Shown: piece by piece, positions 52,352 through 60,670 of the stretch | How positions within the stretch are numbered: position 1 is the first letter of the stretch | Layout: the number at the start of each line of letters is the position of its first letter | From: Candidatus Iainarchaeum sp. | GTDB taxonomy: Archaea > B1Sed10-29 > WALL01 | DNA: 64,000 nucleotides | Assembly (NCBI GenBank): GCA_021162685.1 | Contig: JAGGYF010000021.1 | Location: 1 to 64,000, forward strand | Direction: 5' to 3' | Notes under the pieces: generated by a model | Database searches by the model: none | What the model was told of the DNA's origin: nothing | What the model saw: the letters and a program-made list of their open reading frames with translations, nothing else | Position numbers and translations under genes: made by a program

Positions 52352-53725
52352 TCATGTCCTGTACTTTGGATGATACTTCTTTATGTGCGCTTCACTTATC
52401 CTCTTGAGCTCTTCCTCTGGTAGGTCTGCAAGGAGTTTCCAACCAATATCCAGTGTTGTTTCTATGCTCCTGTTCTCCTCATATCCCTGAGCAACAAACT
52501 CTTTCTCAAACCTATCCGCGAATATTAGGTATTTTTTGTCTCGTGGTGAAAGTGCTTCTTCTCCTATGACTGCAACCAGGTCACGTAAATTTCTTCCCTC
52601 TGCATATGCAGCATAAAGTTGATTACTGACACCTGAATGGTCTTCCCTTGTCTTTTTATGCCCAATGCCCTTGTTCATCAATCGTGATAGGCAAGGAAGC
52701 ACATCAATTGGAGGATATATGTTCTTCCTGTGCAAATCTCGCTTCAAAACAATTTGTCCTTCTGTAATATAACCAGTAAGGTCTGGTATAGGATGTGTGA
52801 TGTCGTCATCAGGCATTGTAACAATAGGCATCTGCGTAATGCTTCCTTTTCTTCCCTTTATCTTTCCTGCTCTCTCGTATATTGTTGCTAAGTCTGTGTA
52901 CATGTAACCAGGATACCCTCTTCTTCCAGGTACCTCCTCCCTCGCAGCAGCAATCTGTCTCAAACTCTCACAATAGTTTGTCATGTCTGTCAGTATAACC
53001 AAAACATGCATGTCCTTCTCAAATGCGAGATATTCTGCTGCTGTTAGTGCAACCCTGGGAGTAATAATTCTTTCAATCGCTGGGTCATCTGCAAGGTTCA
53101 GAAACATTGTAACCTTCTCAAGTGCCCCTGTTCTCTCAAAATCCCTCATGAAGAAACGTGCTTCTTCATAGGTAACACCCATTGCAGCAAATATGACTGA
53201 AAATTCCTCCTCTCTACCGAGTACTCTTGCCTGCCTTGCTATCTGTGCTGCAAGTTGGTTGTGGGGCAACCCAGAACCAGAGAATATAGGTAACTTCTGT
53301 CCCCTGACAAGCGTGTTCATGCCGTCTATGGCTGAAATACCTGTCTGGATAAAGTCCTCTGGATAGTCACGTGAAGAGGGATTTATCGGCTCTCCGTTTA
53401 TATCTCTCTTTTCATCAGGCACAATTGGGGGCCCATGTAAAGGATTTCCCTTTCCGTCAAAAATTCTACCAACCATCTCATCTGAAACAGCAATCTTCAT
53501 TGTTTCTCCTGTGAACCTTATGCGTGTTGATGAGGTATTAAGGCCAGATGTACTTTCAAATACCTGAACAACTGCTAACCCCTCTGATGTTTCAAGAACC
53601 TGGCCTGTTCTTATCTCTCCCCCTGGTCCCTCTATCTTAACTACCTCACCATATCCTGCTCTATCAACACCCTCAACAATAACTAATGGTCCTGTAATCT
53701 CCTTCACTGACATGTACTCTTTCAT
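52352..53725 (-). CDS. atpB: A-type ATP synthase subunit B
   Basis: [28 protein letters not shown] motifs. Confidence 0.98.
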
Positions 53726-55428
53726 TGTTTCACCCCCAATTGTTCTACAATATCATGCTCTATCTTCTTCACGTCTATCTCCTCTACATATTTCATTCGT
53801 GCTATTTCGGAGCGTACTGGCAACGTTGCAATTTCAGAGAGTGTTTTGTGTTTTATTGCCTCTTTTGCATGATGGACAAACATCATAATCAAGCGTAACA
53901 TATCAAACTGCTTCTTAGGTGAACAATACGCATCAACTTCGTGGAAAGCGTTTTGTTGGAGATAATCCTCTCTCAACATTCTGCCTGCCTCCAAAATAAC
54001 TTGGTCTTCTGGTGGCAATGCATCCGGCCCTACTAACTGAACGATTTCTTGTAACTCTGCCTCCTTCTGCAATATTACCATTGCCTCGTCTCTGAGTTTT
54101 CTCCATCCTGGCGAAACATGCTCATTATACCACTCTGTTACATTATCCAGATATAGTGAATAACTTGTAAGCCAGTTTATTGCTGGGAAGTGTCTCCTAT
54201 TTGCTAATGCTGCATCAAGCGCCCAGAACACTTTGGTTATACGTAGTGTGTTCTGAGTTACTGGTTCTGAGAAGTCACCGCCCGGAGGTGAAACTGCACC
54301 AACAAGTGAAACTGAACCAATTTCACCAGAAAATGCCTTTACTCTTCCTGCTCTCTCATAGAACTCTGCAAGTTTTGCTGCGAGATAAGCTGGATATCCT
54401 TCCTCACCAGGCATCTCCTCAAGTCTACCTGAAATCTCTCTCATTGCCTCTGCCCATCTGGATGTAGAGTCAGCAAGCATAGTAACGTCATATCCTTGGT
54501 CTCTATAATACTCACCAATTGTTACTCCTGTATACACTGATGCCTCTCTTGCAGCAACTGGCATGTTTGATGTATTTGCGATGAGCACTGTTCGTTCTAT
54601 AAGTTTATCTCCTGTTTTTGGATCAACAAGTTCTGGAAACTCCTGTAACACATCTGTCATCTCGTTGCCTCGCTCACCGCATCCTACAAAGATTATAACA
54701 TCTGCATCACACCATTTTGCTAACGAATGTTGTGTCACAGTTTTCCCTGCTCCAAATGGCCCTGGAATTGCTGCTGTTCCTCCCTTTGCAATGGGGAAGA
54801 ATGTGTCCAAAATTCTTTGTCCAGAGATAAGAGGGGTGTCAGGATCCAGTTTTTGTTCGTATGGTCTCTTTTTCCTAACTGGCCATTTGTGTGCCAGAAA
54901 AACCTCTTTTCCATCTATTGTTCCGATGGGGTCGCGGATAGAATACTTTCCTGACTTTATATCGCCTACTTTTCCAGCAAACGGAGCAAGAATCCTATGC
55001 TCAATTGTTTTTGATTCCTGGACTGTACCTAGAACTTGTCCTGCCTTTACCTTTGCGCCCTTCTTTACTTTTGCTTCAAATTCCCATTTTTTTCTTTCAT
55101 TTAGTGCAGGTACATCTATTCCCCTTGCAATGAAGTCTCCTGACTTCTGCTTCATTTTTTCTAATGGTCTTTGGATACCATCATAGATTGACTTCAAAAG
55201 ACCTGGTCCCAATTCTACGCATAGGGGTTCGTGCGTATCAACAACCTTCTCCCCTGGCTTTAGTCCAGAGGTTTCCTCATAAACTTGTATTGTTGCTTTA
55301 TCTCTAACTAAACCAATGATCTCACCTATAAGGTTTTCCTCACCAACCCTTACTACATCATATACCTTAGCGTCCTTCATGTCTTTTGCAATAACAACTG
55401 GTCCTGAAATTTTAGATATTACTCCCAT
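53722..55428 (-). CDS. atpA: A-type ATP synthase subunit A (no intein)
   Basis: [28 protein letters not shown] motifs. Confidence 0.98.
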
Positions 55429-55432
55429 TTTT

Positions 55433-55729
55433 TCACCCCTTAACCTCAACATTAAATCCTATTGCTTCTTTCGTTATCTCATCAAGAATGTTCTGTCTTT
55501 CCTCGCCTGGTTTCTCAGGAAGAGGAATGACAATAGGGAATGTTCTCTTTCTCCTTGACTTCACAAAATTTTCTACCTCCTCATAGTATTGATATGTTGT
55601 GATTATGATGCCAGCATCCATATCTACATTATGAAGTGCATGTTCTTTAGTTTCGGCAATAACTCCTTCTATACCAGCTAACCTAAATCCAATAACAAAC
55701 CTTCTTGGTCCTATTGCCTGGATCTTCAT
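55433..55729 (-). CDS. atpF: A-type ATP synthase subunit F
   Basis: GFRLAGI motif; operon position. Confidence 0.9.
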
Positions 55730-56850
55730 ATATTTATCACTTCCTCAATCTCTTTTTCTGAAAATCCCCCTGCTTTCATATGTATAATGGCTCGTATATT
55801 TGCAACCTCAACAGTTTTGGAATGTATATATGAGAGCAAAGGTCCAGCATTTAACATGTTTCCAAGTGCAATGCTCTTTATGAACCTCAATACCTCTTTG
55901 TTCAATGCTCTTTCATATGGTCTGAGTGAATGTGTCTTCTCTGCTTCTTGTCTAACAGAAGTTAATATCTCACCGTATTCTGTGTCCTCTAAAGACAACA
56001 CAACTGCATCTGGGTTCTCTGCATCAGCAATTGCATATAACTTCTTGTACAACCTACCTATTGGAATGAGCATCCCCCTTACAATGTCTGTTTGTGCACC
56101 AATCTTTTTCAACCTCAGCAATGTCATTATATTATAAACATCAATCAACTTTTCAAGATACTGCCTGAACACAGGTAAACGTGCATACCCTACTGTTGTT
56201 TCAAGCACCCACCTATCTAATGCGTTTTCTATGTAACCAACATTTTTTGTTCGTTTGTATTCCGGAAGTGCTTTTGCGATAACAGAAGAGAATTCTGAAT
56301 CTTGCAACTTTGAGAGCAGCTCATCCGTATCTGAAGAAGATGCATAATCCTGTAGTATCCTGTCTGTCTCATCCCATGGAACATATGTTGGCTCTTTCCC
56401 AGCATGCTTTGCTCTCAATATTTCCTTCAAATTTGAAACAAACCAGAACTCTTTCAGATAAAGAGATAATGGCTTCTCAACATCGTCTGGTGCCATTGAG
56501 AGTATTCTTTTGTACGTATCCAGAAGTGCCTTTTTTAATCCGATATCTATCCTCTCTGTCTTGACAATATACGGCTCGTATTCCGTTCTTTCAAGAATTG
56601 ATAAAACCTCAGATGCATCTCTTGTAGAGAGCATCTCAGAGTACTGGGTTTTGCTCAAAAGTTTCCCAGACATTGCATTTGCACGCGCATTTGGATATAC
56701 GTATTTTGCAATGCCTATGATGTACCAAATGATTGGCACAAAGATTGCAAGTAGCAAAACAAGAGAGAAAACTATAAGCAGAGCTAGGAAAACAACGGGG
56801 TCCTCAAACCCAAATGCTTGTGCTATTGGTAAGACGCTCTCAAAACTCAT
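55726..56850 (-). CDS. atpC: A-type ATP synthase subunit C with N-terminal TM extension
   Basis: YVYPNAR, EVANIRAI motifs; operon position. Confidence 0.88.
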   Translation of the reverse strand: MSFESVLPIAQAFGFEDPVVFLALLIVFSLVLLLAIFVPIIWYIIGIAKYVYPNARANAMSGKLLSKTQYSEMLSTRDASEVLSILERTEYEPYIVKTERIDIGLKKALLDTYKRILSMAPDDVEKPLSLYLKEFWFVSNLKEILRAKHAGKEPTYVPWDETDRILQDYASSSDTDELLSKLQDSEFSSVIAKALPEYKRTKNVGYIENALDRWVLETTVGYARLPVFRQYLEKLIDVYNIMTLLRLKKIGAQTDIVRGMLIPIGRLYKKLYAIADAENPDAVVLSLEDTEYGEILTSVRQEAEKTHSLRPYERALNKEVLRFIKSIALGNMLNAGPLLSYIHSKTVEVANIRAIIHMKAGGFSEKEIEEVINI

Positions 56851-57413
56851 CGTATCTCCTTTGTTATCAATTGCCTTATTGCATCCATATCTGTCTCAAT
56901 AACATTTGATAATGTGTTGTCTATCTTTACTCCTGAACGTGTTTCTATAATAACACCTGGCTCGTCTAGGTCATAGACCACTTCATACTTCATCTTCAAT
57001 GAATCATAAATCTCTTTATCCCTTTTATTGAGATGAATAATCACATCCTTTGTAGAAAGTTCTTTTACTGCTTCTTTTATCCTCTTCTCAAGAAATGCCT
57101 TGTATTTTTTCTTATCAAAAGTCCTCTTCTTTATACTATCTTTTACCTGCTTCATCACCTTATTAATTATCTTTTCTCTCTCCTCAAGATATTTCATCCT
57201 AACTCTTATCTCTGCATCAGCAATGATTCTACTTGTCTCAAACTCAATCTTTCTTTTGTTCTCCTCTTCTATCTTCTCCCTTTTCTGTTTTGCTTCTTTC
57301 TCTGCCTGCTTCATGATCTCCTCTGCTTTTTCCTTTGCTTCTCTGATGATACTCTCCTCTTCTGTCTTTGCCTTCTTTTCTATCTCATGCACAAGTTTTT
57401 CTATGCCTATCAT
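56847..57413 (-). CDS. atpE: A-type ATP synthase subunit E
   Basis: Charged coiled coil; GVII..IDNTL; operon position. Confidence 0.85.
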   Translation of the reverse strand: MIGIEKLVHEIEKKAKTEEESIIREAKEKAEEIMKQAEKEAKQKREKIEEENKRKIEFETSRIIADAEIRVRMKYLEEREKIINKVMKQVKDSIKKRTFDKKKYKAFLEKRIKEAVKELSTKDVIIHLNKRDKEIYDSLKMKYEVVYDLDEPGVIIETRSGVKIDNTLSNVIETDMDAIRQLITKEIR

Positions 57414-57417
57414 TGTA

Positions 57418-58383
57418 TCACCCTAACAGCCCCACTCCAAGCATTATAAGGATCGCAACAAGCAATCCAAGTATTGCAAATGTTTCTGGGATAACTGCAA
57501 GTACTAATCCCTTTCCTAATGAGGTGGGGTTTTTTGCGATGCCCATTATCCCACCAGACGCCACAATTCCTTGTCCAATGGCTGAAAGACCAGCAAATCC
57601 AATAGAGACCCCTGCTGCTATTGCTGCAAATCCTGCTACCTCACCAAGGTTTGTTGGCTTTCCAGAAATGATGCCAATGAAGAAGAGTATGAGTATTGCT
57701 ATGAGTAAACCATAGATTGCTTGTGTTTCTGGAAGGACGGAAAATGCCATTGCCTTTCCAAATAGTTCGCTCTTCTCTGATACTGCTCCAACACCTGAAG
57801 CAGCAGCAATTCCTTGTCCAATGGCTGAAAGACCAGCAACGCCAACTGCAATACCTGCTCCAATGGCTGCCAGTCCTGCAACATCACCAAGGTTTGTTGG
57901 CTCTCCAGAAATGATACCCATGAAGAAGAGTATGAGTATTGCTATGAGTAAACCATAGATTGCTTGTGTTTCTGGAAGGACAGAGAACACCATGGATTTT
58001 CCAAACATTTTGGAGTCACGTGCAGTTGCTCCTGCACCTGCTGCTGATGCTATTCCTTGTCCAATGGCTGAAAGACCAGCAACGCCAACTGCAATACCTG
58101 CTCCAATGGCTGCTAATGCCATTGGCAACGTTATCTCACGTGGTGCTCCGCCCAATATGCCAACACCCATCATAATCAAAACCGCAATAAGGAAGCCATA
58201 AAACCCTTGTGTCTGCGGAATTGCCTGGAAAATAATTGCTGTTGAGAACTTCTTTGGGTTCTCAGCAACAATACCTGCACCTGCAGCACCGGCAATACCT
58301 GCTCCAATACCTGCTGACAACCCCGCAATACCAACTGCAAGGGCAGCTCCAATAAGTGCAATCGCAACCTCAACTCCTATCAT
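57418..58383 (-). CDS. atpK: A-type ATP synthase proteolipid subunit K/c with four hairpins
   Basis: Four ~81-aa units ending PQTQ, PETQ, PETQ, PETF. Confidence 0.93.
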   Translation of the reverse strand: MIGVEVAIALIGAALAVGIAGLSAGIGAGIAGAAGAGIVAENPKKFSTAIIFQAIPQTQGFYGFLIAVLIMMGVGILGGAPREITLPMALAAIGAGIAVGVAGLSAIGQGIASAAGAGATARDSKMFGKSMVFSVLPETQAIYGLLIAILILFFMGIISGEPTNLGDVAGLAAIGAGIAVGVAGLSAIGQGIAAASGVGAVSEKSELFGKAMAFSVLPETQAIYGLLIAILILFFIGIISGKPTNLGEVAGFAAIAAGVSIGFAGLSAIGQGIVASGGIMGIAKNPTSLGKGLVLAVIPETFAILGLLVAILIMLGVGLLG

Positions 58384-60353
58384 TTTATCACCACATGTTT
58401 TGTTTTTATTGAAAACGGAGAAAAGAGCTCTCCACCGCTCTCGTAGAACTTACTAAAGAATTCAACATAATGCAATCTTAAAGAGTGAATAAATGAACCC
58501 AATGCATTCATCACAAAGTTAAATGTATGACCTGCTATGAAAACAATAATTCCTATAAGTATGCCAATGTAGGGGAGATCCCATACAATCTGTGTGAGTA
58601 TGTTCACTGTTAGTGCAATACCACCAGTTGCAAGTGCTAATGCCAGCAACCTAGAATACGACAAAACATCACCAAGCATGCCTGTCACATTCATCATACC
58701 TAATGCTTTTTCGTTATAGATGAATAATGCAAGAGCTAACAGCATCATGAGCATACCAAGATTTTGGAAGGGCGTCATAGCATACACTACTGCACCATAC
58801 ATAAGGAATAAGAAACTGAACTTATCAAGTAGTGCTTGTTTTAGATTTCCTTTTCTTATAAGCTCAAATGCACCTATCATAAGACCAACGGTTAGATGTA
58901 AAGCACCTACCACAAGTGCTGCCTCAAGTATGAGGATCGGGTTCTTAATAGGATCAAGTGTTTGTCCGAAGAGATTAAACGCCAAGGTATCAACATTGCT
59001 CCCTGTTAGTGCGTTATATGCCATCACACCAACAGTACCAAGATAGCCGCCAGTAAGCACGCCAAAGATAATTGTGAATAATCCTGCCCAAGTAAGTATA
59101 TATGCCAAATCCCTTATTGTGCCCTTTGTTTTGAGATATAACAACAATCCAAGTGCAGAAAGAATAATGCCATAAACAGTATCTGTCAGCATTAAACCAA
59201 AGTATATAAGGAACATTGGCGCGAGCATAGGTGTTGGATCAATCTCTCCATATTTTGGAGGGGCATACATGTTTGTGAGCATCTCAAATGGCTTTAATGG
59301 TTTTGGATTATCAAGAAGTACGGGCGGTTCTTCTCCTTCATCTGGTTTAAGTTTCCTTATCACTGCTTGTCCATCTGTCTCCTTCATTATCAAATGTTCA
59401 AATGCCTTGTATTTTTTTGAGGGAACCCATGCTTCTATGTATGTAGTGTAGTGTGTTCTACCAAACCATGTCCTTATCTCTGACCTCTCTACCTCCAATT
59501 CCAATACATCATATAACACATCCAATTCCTGCTCGTACCTCTTTGCAATACGGAGTATCTTCCCAATCACCTCTTTCCTCTTCTCCTCTAACTGCTTTAT
59601 CTCCTTCTTTATATGTTCTATCAGGTGTGATGGCTTTCCTTTCATATCTGGTATATCAATGTGTGAAAATCTCGCTATCCTCATTACCTTTTCAAACTCG
59701 CGTATGTCTTCCTTTAGTATAACGACAACTGCAAATGTCCTCTCCTCTTTTGCTGTTGTGTGTACAAAATAACCATGCTTTATGTGCTTATGCATTTCTT
59801 CCCTGAGCAATGATGGCTTCTCCACAAATCCAATGAACGTTTTTGTGTATTTCCCTTCCCTTAAAAATTCAAGGTCAATATCTAACGCAAGCGTCTCAAG
59901 AAGTTCAAGATTGGAACGTAGGTCATTTATCCTATCATCAATTTCCTCCATTTGTGCCTCAAGTGGTTTTGTTTTTTCTTCTATCGCATCAAGAAGGCGT
60001 GTTGCGTTCTTTACCTTCTCTTTAAGCTCCTTTTCTGTAACCACTACCCTCTTCTTATCCTCCACACCAATAAACTGGGCAATAATACTCTTCTCCTTTT
60101 TTGGCTTTGCACTATTGAACAGGTCAAGTATTCTCCGTGCCCTCAAAAGGTTCCTTGATATCTCTGGCCCCTCCTCTTTTAGTTCGTTTTTAACAAGCAA
60201 TGCTTTCAGTGGTCCAGATTTTATTTTATCCGATATGTCTACAATCTCACAATTAGAAAATGTGTGGAGTCTATCAACAACCCTATCGCAATGGTCCGAA
60301 CTTATTATCACTCCAACCTTCTGCATTGCTGCTGGTCTGAACATGTATTTCAC
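58380..60353 (-). CDS. atpI: A-type ATP synthase subunit I (a)
   Basis: EIDPT, LSYSRLLAL, LRLHYVEFF motifs. Confidence 0.96.
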   Translation of the reverse strand: MKYMFRPAAMQKVGVIISSDHCDRVVDRLHTFSNCEIVDISDKIKSGPLKALLVKNELKEEGPEISRNLLRARRILDLFNSAKPKKEKSIIAQFIGVEDKKRVVVTEKELKEKVKNATRLLDAIEEKTKPLEAQMEEIDDRINDLRSNLELLETLALDIDLEFLREGKYTKTFIGFVEKPSLLREEMHKHIKHGYFVHTTAKEERTFAVVVILKEDIREFEKVMRIARFSHIDIPDMKGKPSHLIEHIKKEIKQLEEKRKEVIGKILRIAKRYEQELDVLYDVLELEVERSEIRTWFGRTHYTTYIEAWVPSKKYKAFEHLIMKETDGQAVIRKLKPDEGEEPPVLLDNPKPLKPFEMLTNMYAPPKYGEIDPTPMLAPMFLIYFGLMLTDTVYGIILSALGLLLYLKTKGTIRDLAYILTWAGLFTIIFGVLTGGYLGTVGVMAYNALTGSNVDTLAFNLFGQTLDPIKNPILILEAALVVGALHLTVGLMIGAFELIRKGNLKQALLDKFSFLFLMYGAVVYAMTPFQNLGMLMMLLALALFIYNEKALGMMNVTGMLGDVLSYSRLLALALATGGIALTVNILTQIVWDLPYIGILIGIIVFIAGHTFNFVMNALGSFIHSLRLHYVEFFSKFYESGGELFSPFSIKTKHVVIK

Positions 60354-60670
60354 GATAGAATATGTAACAAAACCTTATTCACTGCTTTGGGGATCGCCTT
60401 CTGTGCTTTTGATTGCATGGACATGAGATTTTTGTTGCCTTTTTCTAGGATTTTCTGTGCTTGTGCTTCTGCCTTCTTCTTCTCAGAGACGAGGAGGGAT
60501 TCTGCGTCCTTTTTGGCCTTCTTCTCCTCTGCAAGAACATACTTTTCTGCATCCTTCTTGGCCTTCTCTACTATCCCCTCTGCCCTCTTTCTTGCCTGCT
60601 CTATACGTGCAAATGCCTGTTCCTCTGCCTTTTTAATGTGTTTCAAGGATTCAATTGCCAATCTGCCCAC
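60350..60670 (-). CDS. atpH: A-type ATP synthase subunit H/G
   Basis: IKKAEEQA..ARKRA coiled coil; first gene of the operon. Confidence 0.8.
   Translation of the reverse strand: MGRLAIESLKHIKKAEEQAFARIEQARKRAEGIVEKAKKDAEKYVLAEEKKAKKDAESLLVSEKKKAEAQAQKILEKGNKNLMSMQSKAQKAIPKAVNKVLLHILS

Follow-up and report, generated by a model that had tools for sequence, protein, structure and literature searches.

How an archaeon of a small-genome lineage came to carry an ATP synthase rotor subunit made of four fused hairpins, and what such a rotor would do for the cell, are the questions raised by the atpK/ahaK gene (here called K) in a 64,000-nucleotide (nt) stretch of DNA from Candidatus Iainarchaeum sp. 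(contig JAGGYF010000021.1, positions 1 to 64,000; the window). Our overall reading, to which we assign a probability of roughly 0.78, is that K is a four-hairpin, three-site, Na+-type member of a multi-hairpin family, that its internal hairpins have been subject to gene conversion, and that it was probably not built in place.

The gene is an open reading frame in which the profile PF00137 (ATP-synt_C) matches four separate stretches (E 8.1e-65, 215.4 bits against a curated cut-off of 24). Each hairpin scored between 53.6 and 67.4 bits in a profile scan of the whole genome, and these four matches were the only ones in the 1.11-megabase, 98%-complete assembly; therefore, K is its single c/K gene. 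The chain was cut after residues 87, 168 and 249, and the site residues were read from the hairpins (HP1 to HP4) after all of them had been aligned to one profile:

57418..58383, minus strand: atpK/ahaK, rotor proteolipid K/c, 321 amino acids, four fused hairpins or eight transmembrane helices, three predicted ion sites (open reading frame plus four PF00137 matches)
58123..58383, minus strand: HP1, residues 1-87; A28 and Q57 (no carboxylate, no helix-1 Gln), with T58, Q59 and Y62 kept
57880..58122, minus strand: HP2, residues 88-168; Q109, E138, T139, Q140 and Y143; internal hairpin of the "a type"
57637..57879, minus strand: HP3, residues 169-249; Q190, E219, T220, Q221 and Y224; internal hairpin of the "b type", with an AVSEK-type loop
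57418..57636, minus strand: HP4, residues 250-321 and the stop codon; Q271, E300 and T301, with F302 and L305 in place of the +2 Gln and the +5 Tyr

From HP1 to HP4, the helix-1 position and the helix-2 motif read A and PQTQ..Y, Q and PETQ..Y, Q and PETQ..Y, and Q and PETF..L; the combination of A28 and Q57 excludes HP1 from having an ion site of its own. NtpK, the proteolipid of the Enterococcus hirae V-type Na+-ATPase, provided the template for assigning ligands, since phmmer aligned HP1 to its residues 14-81, with T64, Q65 and Y68 as counterparts, and HP4 to its residues 84-155, with Q110 and E139 as counterparts. In NtpK, Na+ is bound by the carbonyl of Leu61 together with Thr64 and Gln65 of helix 2, Gln110 of helix 3 and Glu139 of helix 4, and Tyr68 supports the Glu (PMC2359735). 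From this placement of the ligands it follows that each site forms between two adjacent hairpins. The alignment to NtpK brings together T58, Q59 and Y62 of HP1 with Q109 and E138 of HP2; T139, Q140 and Y143 of HP2 with Q190 and E219 of HP3; and T220, Q221 and Y224 of HP3 with Q271 and E300 of HP4. On the face that is expected to meet the siteless first hairpin of the next chain, HP4 is without the +2 Gln and the +5 Tyr. The site residues were invariant in all 12 four-hairpin proteins that were aligned.

A Na+ assignment can be made with the motif rule given in the methods of a recent preprint (10.64898/2026.10.01.756066). The Na+-type motif, namely a Gln or Glu in helix 1 and a Glu in helix 2, combined with a Ser or Thr at +1, a polar residue at +2 and a Tyr at +5 of the neighboring helix 2, is satisfied at three sites in K. 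Judged by its sequence, K is a protein with three complete, predicted Na+-type sites in four hairpins, and this ligand set predicts Na+ coupling. The first-pass annotation had already described four hairpins with three ion-binding glutamates, a first hairpin lacking the carboxylate (PQTQ), a downstream Tyr retained in HP2 and HP3, and a Na+-site signature; all of these features were recovered, the glutamates as E138, E219 and E300, the missing carboxylate as Q57 with A28 in the profile alignment, the tyrosines as Y143 and Y224, and the predicted signature as a match to all NtpK ligands at each of the three sites.

An AlphaFold2 model of K, built from the alignment of the 12 four-hairpin proteins, was all-helical, with a mean predicted local distance difference test score of 91.9 and a predicted template modeling (TM) score of 0.89. 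NtpK was the best solved match in both fold and sequence (2bl2_A; TM-score on the target, 0.84; root mean square deviation, 1.9 Å over 148 columns; 34% identity; sequence match to K, E 7.7e-18). The NtpK chain spans half of K, and no solved chain spans more than about half of it (TM-score on the query of 0.42 or less).

Like K, NtpK (PDB 2BL2) has a first hairpin that lacks the carboxylate and gives the Thr, Gln and Tyr, followed by a second that gives the Gln and Glu; however, NtpK has two hairpins and one site, whereas K inserts two complete hairpins between an NtpK-like first and an NtpK-like last hairpin, which results in four hairpins and three sites. The proteolipid of Methanocaldococcus jannaschii has two carboxylates in three hairpins; likened to K by description, it has one internal hairpin where K has two, and it would be the n = 3 case of the rule described below. 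This M. jannaschii proteolipid has been reported as triplicated, and the K protein of Methanopyrus kandleri as having 13 hairpins with Na+-type ligands (PMC2359735); other Methanococcales share the triplicated form. None of the 13 Methanopyrus hairpins lacks a ligand, and the chain probably makes up a whole ring by itself, whereas K begins with a siteless hairpin and needs several chains to build its ring. The Thermococcales Pyrococcus furiosus and Thermococcus onnurineus have a two-hairpin, one-site "V-type" c subunit in a Na+-coupled A1AO enzyme (PMC9171764).

The family to which K belongs was surveyed in two ways. A protein census classified, by profile columns, the 119 clusters besides the query that were found among the best 120 of 400 matches, and a locus census, with one genome per species, covered the best 79 loci of 449 stretches encoding a relative. 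Canonical four-hairpin, three-site proteins made up 38 of the 119 clusters, alongside 12 five-hairpin and 43 canonical six-hairpin clusters; one cluster was a canonical three-hairpin form, and the others were partial or irregular, including five seven-hairpin chains. Among the 79 loci, 16 were canonical four-hairpin, 3 were five-hairpin, 45 were canonical six-hairpin and 3 were canonical twelve-hairpin loci, and the remaining 12 were irregular or cut. These proteins follow a single rule, by which a chain of n hairpins (n = 3-7 and 12) consists of a siteless first hairpin, n-2 complete hairpins and a last hairpin, giving n-1 sites. K fits this pattern, with A.PQTQ..Y and neither a carboxylate nor a helix-1 Gln in HP1, complete internal hairpins, and Q plus E without the +2 Gln and +5 Tyr in HP4. 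Of the 44 four-hairpin clusters, 38 showed the canonical pattern, as did 16 of the 18 four-hairpin loci, and the four- to twelve-hairpin K proteins of public genomes share both the architecture and the invariant ligands of K.

Multi-hairpin K proteins are found in Hydrothermarchaeota, Thermoplasmata, Undinarchaeota, DHVE2 and Methanomicrobiales, among others, and six-hairpin forms occur in the cultured organisms Methanogenium marinum, Methanoculleus frigidifontis, Methanocalculus taiwanensis and M. chunghsingensis. The closest whole proteins among the matches listed, P0074 (70% identity) and P0076 (69%), both have four hairpins, and the database also holds a three-hairpin, two-site protein (P0087). 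Published descriptions give the forms of the c subunit as "1, 2, 3, or even 13 hairpins" (PMC9171764) or as 2, 3 and 13 hairpins (PMC2359735); the 2026 preprint mentions "several multi-hairpin structures" in its methods and otherwise names two-, four- and 13-hairpin cases (10.64898/2026.10.01.756066). In the literature searched, as far as its text was accessible, no paper was found that describes a K protein of 4-7 or 12 hairpins, and the supplements of the preprint may hold such a census. The first-pass annotation listed 1, 2, 3 and 13 hairpins as the known archaeal forms, with no four-hairpin one, which agrees with the papers searched but not with the databases: public archaeal genomes often encode a four-hairpin K that papers scarcely describe, and the K studied here is an ordinary member of a widespread, barely published family. 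Together, the database relatives, of which hundreds were found, extend the standard list of 1, 2, 3 and 13 hairpins by 4, 5, 6, 7 and 12 hairpins under one rule. K differs from the other multi-hairpin proteins in belonging to a small-genome lineage with two-hairpin members and in the unusually complete homogenization of its helices.

Several unusual relatives came to light in the survey. Twelve-hairpin K frames of 966-1190 amino acids are present at L016, L024, L026, L027, L031, L032 and L041, in Thermococci-labelled, Undinarchaeota and Thermoplasmata metagenome-assembled genomes, and the 13-hairpin protein of Methanopyrus is of comparable size; 11 sites and a single siteless hairpin are seen in some of these frames, and others resemble two fused six-hairpin units (or 6+3+3). 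A record labelled Halanaerobiaceae bacterium (L034) carries an archaeal-type K frame of at least ten hairpins on a 5-kilobase contig; faulty binning is the probable explanation, and the gene is probably not bacterial. In G037, which belongs to the same domain, 14 PF00137 matches lie in several frames on small contigs, with one four-hairpin frame cut at a contig end, suggesting either several multi-hairpin K genes or one fragmented long gene. Finally, the four- or five-hairpin proteins P0069, P0071, P0072 and P0088 have N-terminal PKD-type domains (PF00801, PF18911), an extension that is absent from the K studied here.

The internal hairpins of K are strikingly alike at the DNA level. Tandem Repeats Finder reported a 243-base-pair (bp) period over 57564-58117 (2.3 copies, 84% matches), and a second repeat search reported a 204-nt pair at 87%. 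The first-pass annotation had seen this period and had placed examples of it at 57661/57904 and 57812/58055; the period was confirmed, and the coordinates were a few bases off, the identical blocks beginning at 57677/57920 and 57809/58052. Its view that the repeat is not a simple assembly echo was also upheld, since 40 of the 243 nt distinguish HP2 from HP3, most of them within the loop. The likeness is distributed as follows:

57677-57738, identical to 57920-57981 at an offset of 243: 62-nt block, helix 2 of HP3 and of HP2, putative gene-conversion tract
57809-57870, identical to 58052-58113 at an offset of 243: 62-nt block, helix 1 of HP3 and of HP2, putative gene-conversion tract
57739..57810, minus strand: HP3 loop block, unit codons 24-47, with about 32 of 72 nt differing from the HP2 counterpart at 57982-58053

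Where HP2 and HP3 share a residue, the codon differed in 0 of 40 cases within the helix blocks and in 10 of 25 cases outside them (Fisher p 1.8e-5). The level outside the identical blocks equals that between either internal hairpin and HP4 in the helices (12/28), and from this last figure it follows that the helices tolerate synonymous change. When the 24-residue loop block was ranked against 1117 hairpins, the sister hairpin came 327th for HP2 and 357th for HP3, at 54% identity; in the helix blocks, the sister hairpin ranked first, at 100%. The HP3 loop was nearest to those of the next-to-last hairpins of P0074, P0011 and L033, which are Undinarchaeota-type proteins (83%), and the HP2 loop was nearest to those of internal hairpins of P0001, P0101 and P0091 (75-79%). 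Close proteins alternate the two loop types; P0009, for example, reads first, a, b, a, b, last.

A recent duplication would show an evenly low divergence, with the two copies mutually closest throughout, and HP2 and HP3 do not show this pattern. On these grounds the first-pass annotation's description of the 243-bp duplication as recent lacks support. The simplest account of the sequence is that HP2 and HP3 are old "a" and "b" paralogs, because their loops are closest to position-matched hairpins of other lineages, and that their helices would have been recently homogenized by gene conversion, which would have given rise to the 243-bp periodicity. When the most-alike pair of internal hairpins was taken from each of 70 other loci, most pairs had many synonymous differences in the helix blocks (for example, 13/35 in L017); the homogenization in K (0/40) was the lowest of the 71 genes, apart from a near-identical pair in L040 (1/40).

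Two further repeats were noted. In the five-hairpin gene of a Methanomicrobiales metagenome-assembled genome (L040:5991 onward), the DNA of hairpins 3 and 4 is 99% identical in the helices and 100% identical in the loop; this is a truly recent duplication, which gave the five-hairpin form. Within K, a 33-nt block in helix 1 of HP4 (57564-57596) is identical to its counterpart in HP3 (57807-57839), and homogenization may reach the last hairpin too.

Where the gene came from was addressed by comparison with related genomes. The class of this genome (G000) is represented by 31 genomes in the collection, 8 of which have a c subunit, and in the other 7 it is always a two-hairpin protein. The K proteins of the six relatives that were fetched (G002, G004, G005, G006, G007 and G009) read V/L.PQTQ..Y and Q.AETP..F, a two-hairpin, one-site layout; these have the same first and last hairpin types as K, but one site per two hairpins. 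In tblastn comparisons, subunits I, C, E and F of G000 were nearer to the copies that lie beside multi-hairpin K genes than to those of the relatives, as exemplified by subunit I, with 37% identity and 402 bits to a Hydrothermarchaeota locus versus 28-30% and 238-287 bits to the relatives; subunit A was about equally close to both sets.

Phylogenetic trees were obtained from quick searches under the LG+G4 model with hand-chosen rows (35 of the 75 extracted rows for subunit I, picked to span taxa, and 30 of 55 for subunit A). The subunit I tree united the six relatives in one clade (Shimodaira-Hasegawa-like approximate likelihood ratio test [SH-aLRT] support, 100), and G000 fell outside it. Forcing G000 together with three family mates was rejected for subunit I in the approximately unbiased (AU) test (p-AU, 2e-135), and for subunit A the same constraint gave a p-AU of 0.013. 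A hairpin-level phylogeny, which the first-pass annotation had put forward as a way to trace the repeat, was computed from 110 hairpins of 28 chosen proteins after rows with more than 25 gaps had been dropped; in this unrooted tree of 72 columns, 27 siteless first hairpins formed one clade (SH-aLRT, 97), with the 28th, from a two-site protein of G032, standing apart, and the 20 last hairpins of multi-hairpin proteins, HP4 included, formed another (96) that was separate from the last hairpins of the relatives. Two-hairpin forms may have gained internal hairpins, in line with the first-pass annotation's idea of sites regained by duplication, or multi-hairpin forms may have lost them. The position of G000 outside the clade of its relatives argues for an exchange of the operon, on the side of either G000 or the relatives, and for a K gene that was not built in place: G000 and its family mates appear to be separated by at least one operon exchange, and K probably had several hairpins already when it entered this lineage or was kept in it. 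In-place construction of K from the two-hairpin gene of the family was considered and is disfavored by the tblastn comparisons, the subunit I and A trees, and the hairpin tree.

The ion cost of each ATP is set by how many ion sites the rotor carries per turn, and with it the smallest membrane gradient that can be used. In K, the Gln of helix 1 and the Glu of helix 2 of hairpin i+1 would meet the Thr, Gln and Tyr of hairpin i; HP1 would give ligands without having a carboxylate of its own, and HP4 would keep its carboxylate, having lost the ligands for the next chain, so that three sites would arise from four hairpins. As each chain would carry three ion sites and A1 has three catalytic sites, the number of ions per ATP would be the same as that of K chains in the ring. 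Assumed ring sizes were drawn from solved V/A-type rings. On this basis, the ratio would be 5 for a 20-hairpin ring or 6 for a 24-hairpin ring, compared with 3.3-4 for rings of two-hairpin, one-site chains, the ring size of K being inferred. By arithmetic, three sites per four hairpins would raise the ion/ATP ratio 1.5-fold over that of a two-hairpin, one-site ring with an equal number of hairpins, in agreement with the higher ratio proposed in the first-pass annotation. A higher ion/ATP ratio lowers the gradient that is needed for synthesis (PMC9171764).

A candidate source of the gradient is encoded elsewhere in the genome, in a 14-gene operon of an Mbh/Mrp-type membrane-bound [NiFe] hydrogenase on contig 38 of G000 (L101, 1705-9473, plus strand). 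The operon comprises genes for MnhE, MrpF, MnhG, MbhD, MbhE, MnhB, a NuoK-like protein, an antiporter subunit, one unnamed open reading frame, the small subunit, a 30-kDa subunit, the large subunit, a NuoH-like protein and a ferredoxin, and both NiFe CxxC motifs are intact in the large subunit. Searches of the 98%-complete genome for an H+-pyrophosphatase, the beta subunit of oxaloacetate decarboxylase and the Rnf complex found none of them. Mbh-type hydrogenases generate a Na+ gradient in Thermococcales. It can be envisioned that ferredoxin-driven H2 evolution by the Mbh-type enzyme would build up a small Na+ gradient and that a high-ratio Na+ ATP synthase would spend this gradient on ATP synthesis; the most likely role of K would then be in Na+-driven ATP synthesis from the gradient of the hydrogenase.

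A broader idea, which is tentative and which we regard as somewhat less probable than its opposite, is that these rotors act as a modular "gearbox," in which a siteless first hairpin, a variable set of a and b internal hairpins and a last hairpin are the parts, recombination and conversion alter n, and operons move between lineages. If this is true, the ion/ATP ratio can jump in one step, and would have done so from one site per two hairpins in the other c-bearing genomes of the class to three per four in G000, a vent archaeon with the same Mbh-type Na+ energetics; G000 and the two-hairpin genomes related to it would in that case offer a naturally matched pair for relating gear ratio to minimum driving force. 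The value of this particular K gene is modest, and lies in the contrast with its two-hairpin relatives and in the clear signs of gene conversion inside a rotor gene.

Support for the assembly comes from short public contigs of four runs belonging to one hydrothermal vent metagenome study (plus one run with a small share). The contigs from these four runs tile the K gene and end exactly at the edges of the repeats. A contig of run X4 (57809-57984) crosses the junction between HP2 and HP3 with 0 differences, and a 578-nt contig (57955-58532) reaches from HP2 via HP1 into subunit I. In addition, a contig of run X2 (approximately 57923-58125) carries an HP2-like unit with 4 differences in 130 nt, joined to the head of the next unit by a different 37-nt linker; therefore, the same metagenome study also contains a related strain or species whose K gene differs slightly.

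How the four-hairpin gene arose, and whether four is the true count, leave room for two rival explanations. The gene could have passed from three hairpins, and ultimately from a two-hairpin, one-site form, to four by a recent tandem duplication of the 243-bp unit in place. The period itself, with its 84-87% identity and two identical 62-nt blocks, is what one would look for in such a case; relatives in the same family and order carry a two-hairpin, one-site K, and L040 is proof that hairpins can double recently. However, divergence between HP2 and HP3 is a mosaic (0/40 versus 10/25 synonymous differences), the best matches of each loop are position-matched hairpins from other lineages, the same four-hairpin layout recurs in 38 of the 119 clusters, and the G000 operon does not fall within the group of two-hairpin operons of the family, all of which make a recent duplication in place very unlikely. 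Alternatively, short reads might have been mis-joined or units miscounted, so that the true number of internal hairpins differs. Exact repeats of 62 nt exceed many assembly k-mers, the public contigs stop at the repeat edges with none covering the gene, and the X2 contig has a variant linker; nevertheless, all unique segments and junctions were found (HP4/HP3, the HP3 loop, HP3/HP2, the HP2 loop, and the stretch from HP2/HP1 into subunit I), the frame is intact, the ligand sets are complete, and the four-hairpin layout was assembled independently in 16 of the 79 species loci. An assembly artifact is accordingly a highly improbable explanation.

The function of K is open to two further interpretations. 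In a fermentative, host-dependent archaeon the enzyme might run mainly in reverse, with ATP hydrolysis pumping Na+ (or H+), in which case a high ratio would mean more ions pumped per ATP and a lower maximal gradient. Such use would be in keeping with the observation that 23 of the 31 genomes of the class, many of them incomplete, show no c subunit, so that the enzyme seems dispensable in the group, and with the failure to find the pyrophosphatase, the decarboxylase subunit or Rnf in this genome. Set against this are the complete Mbh/Mrp-type operon, with its intact NiFe large subunit, and the expectation that a higher ion/ATP ratio serves synthesis at low driving force (PMC9171764); we therefore consider the reverse mode unlikely, though by no means fanciful. 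The sites might also bind H+, or both H+ and Na+, despite their Na+-type motif. The motif prediction is a rule of thumb, and the preprint marks unusual multi-hairpin arrangements as "H+/Na+" (10.64898/2026.10.01.756066); against these considerations, each of the three sites retains the five NtpK ligand positions together with the supporting Tyr, which renders H+ binding distinctly unlikely.

Several points weigh against our preferred reading of K as a gene-converted, Na+-type member of the multi-hairpin family that was probably not built in place. The identical helix blocks could have arisen by a recent duplication, after which one loop was replaced by recombination. Grouping G000 with all six relatives was not rejected, with a p-AU of 0.66 for subunit I, where the likelihood was slightly higher, and 0.32 for subunit A, and the operon may have been inherited vertically since early in the history of the order, the transfer having occurred among the relatives instead. 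The trees were quick LG+G4 searches on selected rows, with family labels taken as supplied, and the hairpin tree, of only 72 columns, has many unresolved forks. No public contig from the four runs of the one study covers the whole K gene, and that study may include the sample from which K itself came; in strictness, the gene could have one internal unit more or fewer. Furthermore, an Mbh-like large subunit was found in 5 of the 5 relatives examined; therefore, the energy source fails to explain why G000 alone has the higher gear.

K lies beside the gene for subunit I/a in an A-type operon on a single strand, in the order H-I-K-E-C-F-A, and the other genes of the operon in the window are as follows:

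60350..60670, minus strand: ahaH, 106 amino acids (PF21585, under the curated cut-off)
58380..60353, minus strand: ahaI, stator subunit a/I, 657 amino acids (PF01496)
56847..57413, minus strand: ahaE, peripheral stalk, 188 amino acids (PF01991)
55726..56850, minus strand: ahaC, rotor socket subunit C/d, 374 amino acids (PF01992)
55433..55729, minus strand: ahaF, 98 amino acids (PF01990)
53722..55452, minus strand: ahaA, catalytic subunit A, 576 amino acids (PF00006, PF22919, PF16886, PF02874)

The stop codon of ahaI overlaps the start codon of K (ATGA), and the two genes are therefore translationally coupled. A 17-nt repeat, identical at 16 of 17 positions, lies at 57406-57422 and 58376-58392, and in K as well as in ahaE it takes in the ribosome-binding site together with the opening codons; in both places it reads GGTGAT, 3 bases, ATGATAGG, and both proteins begin with Met-Ile-Gly.

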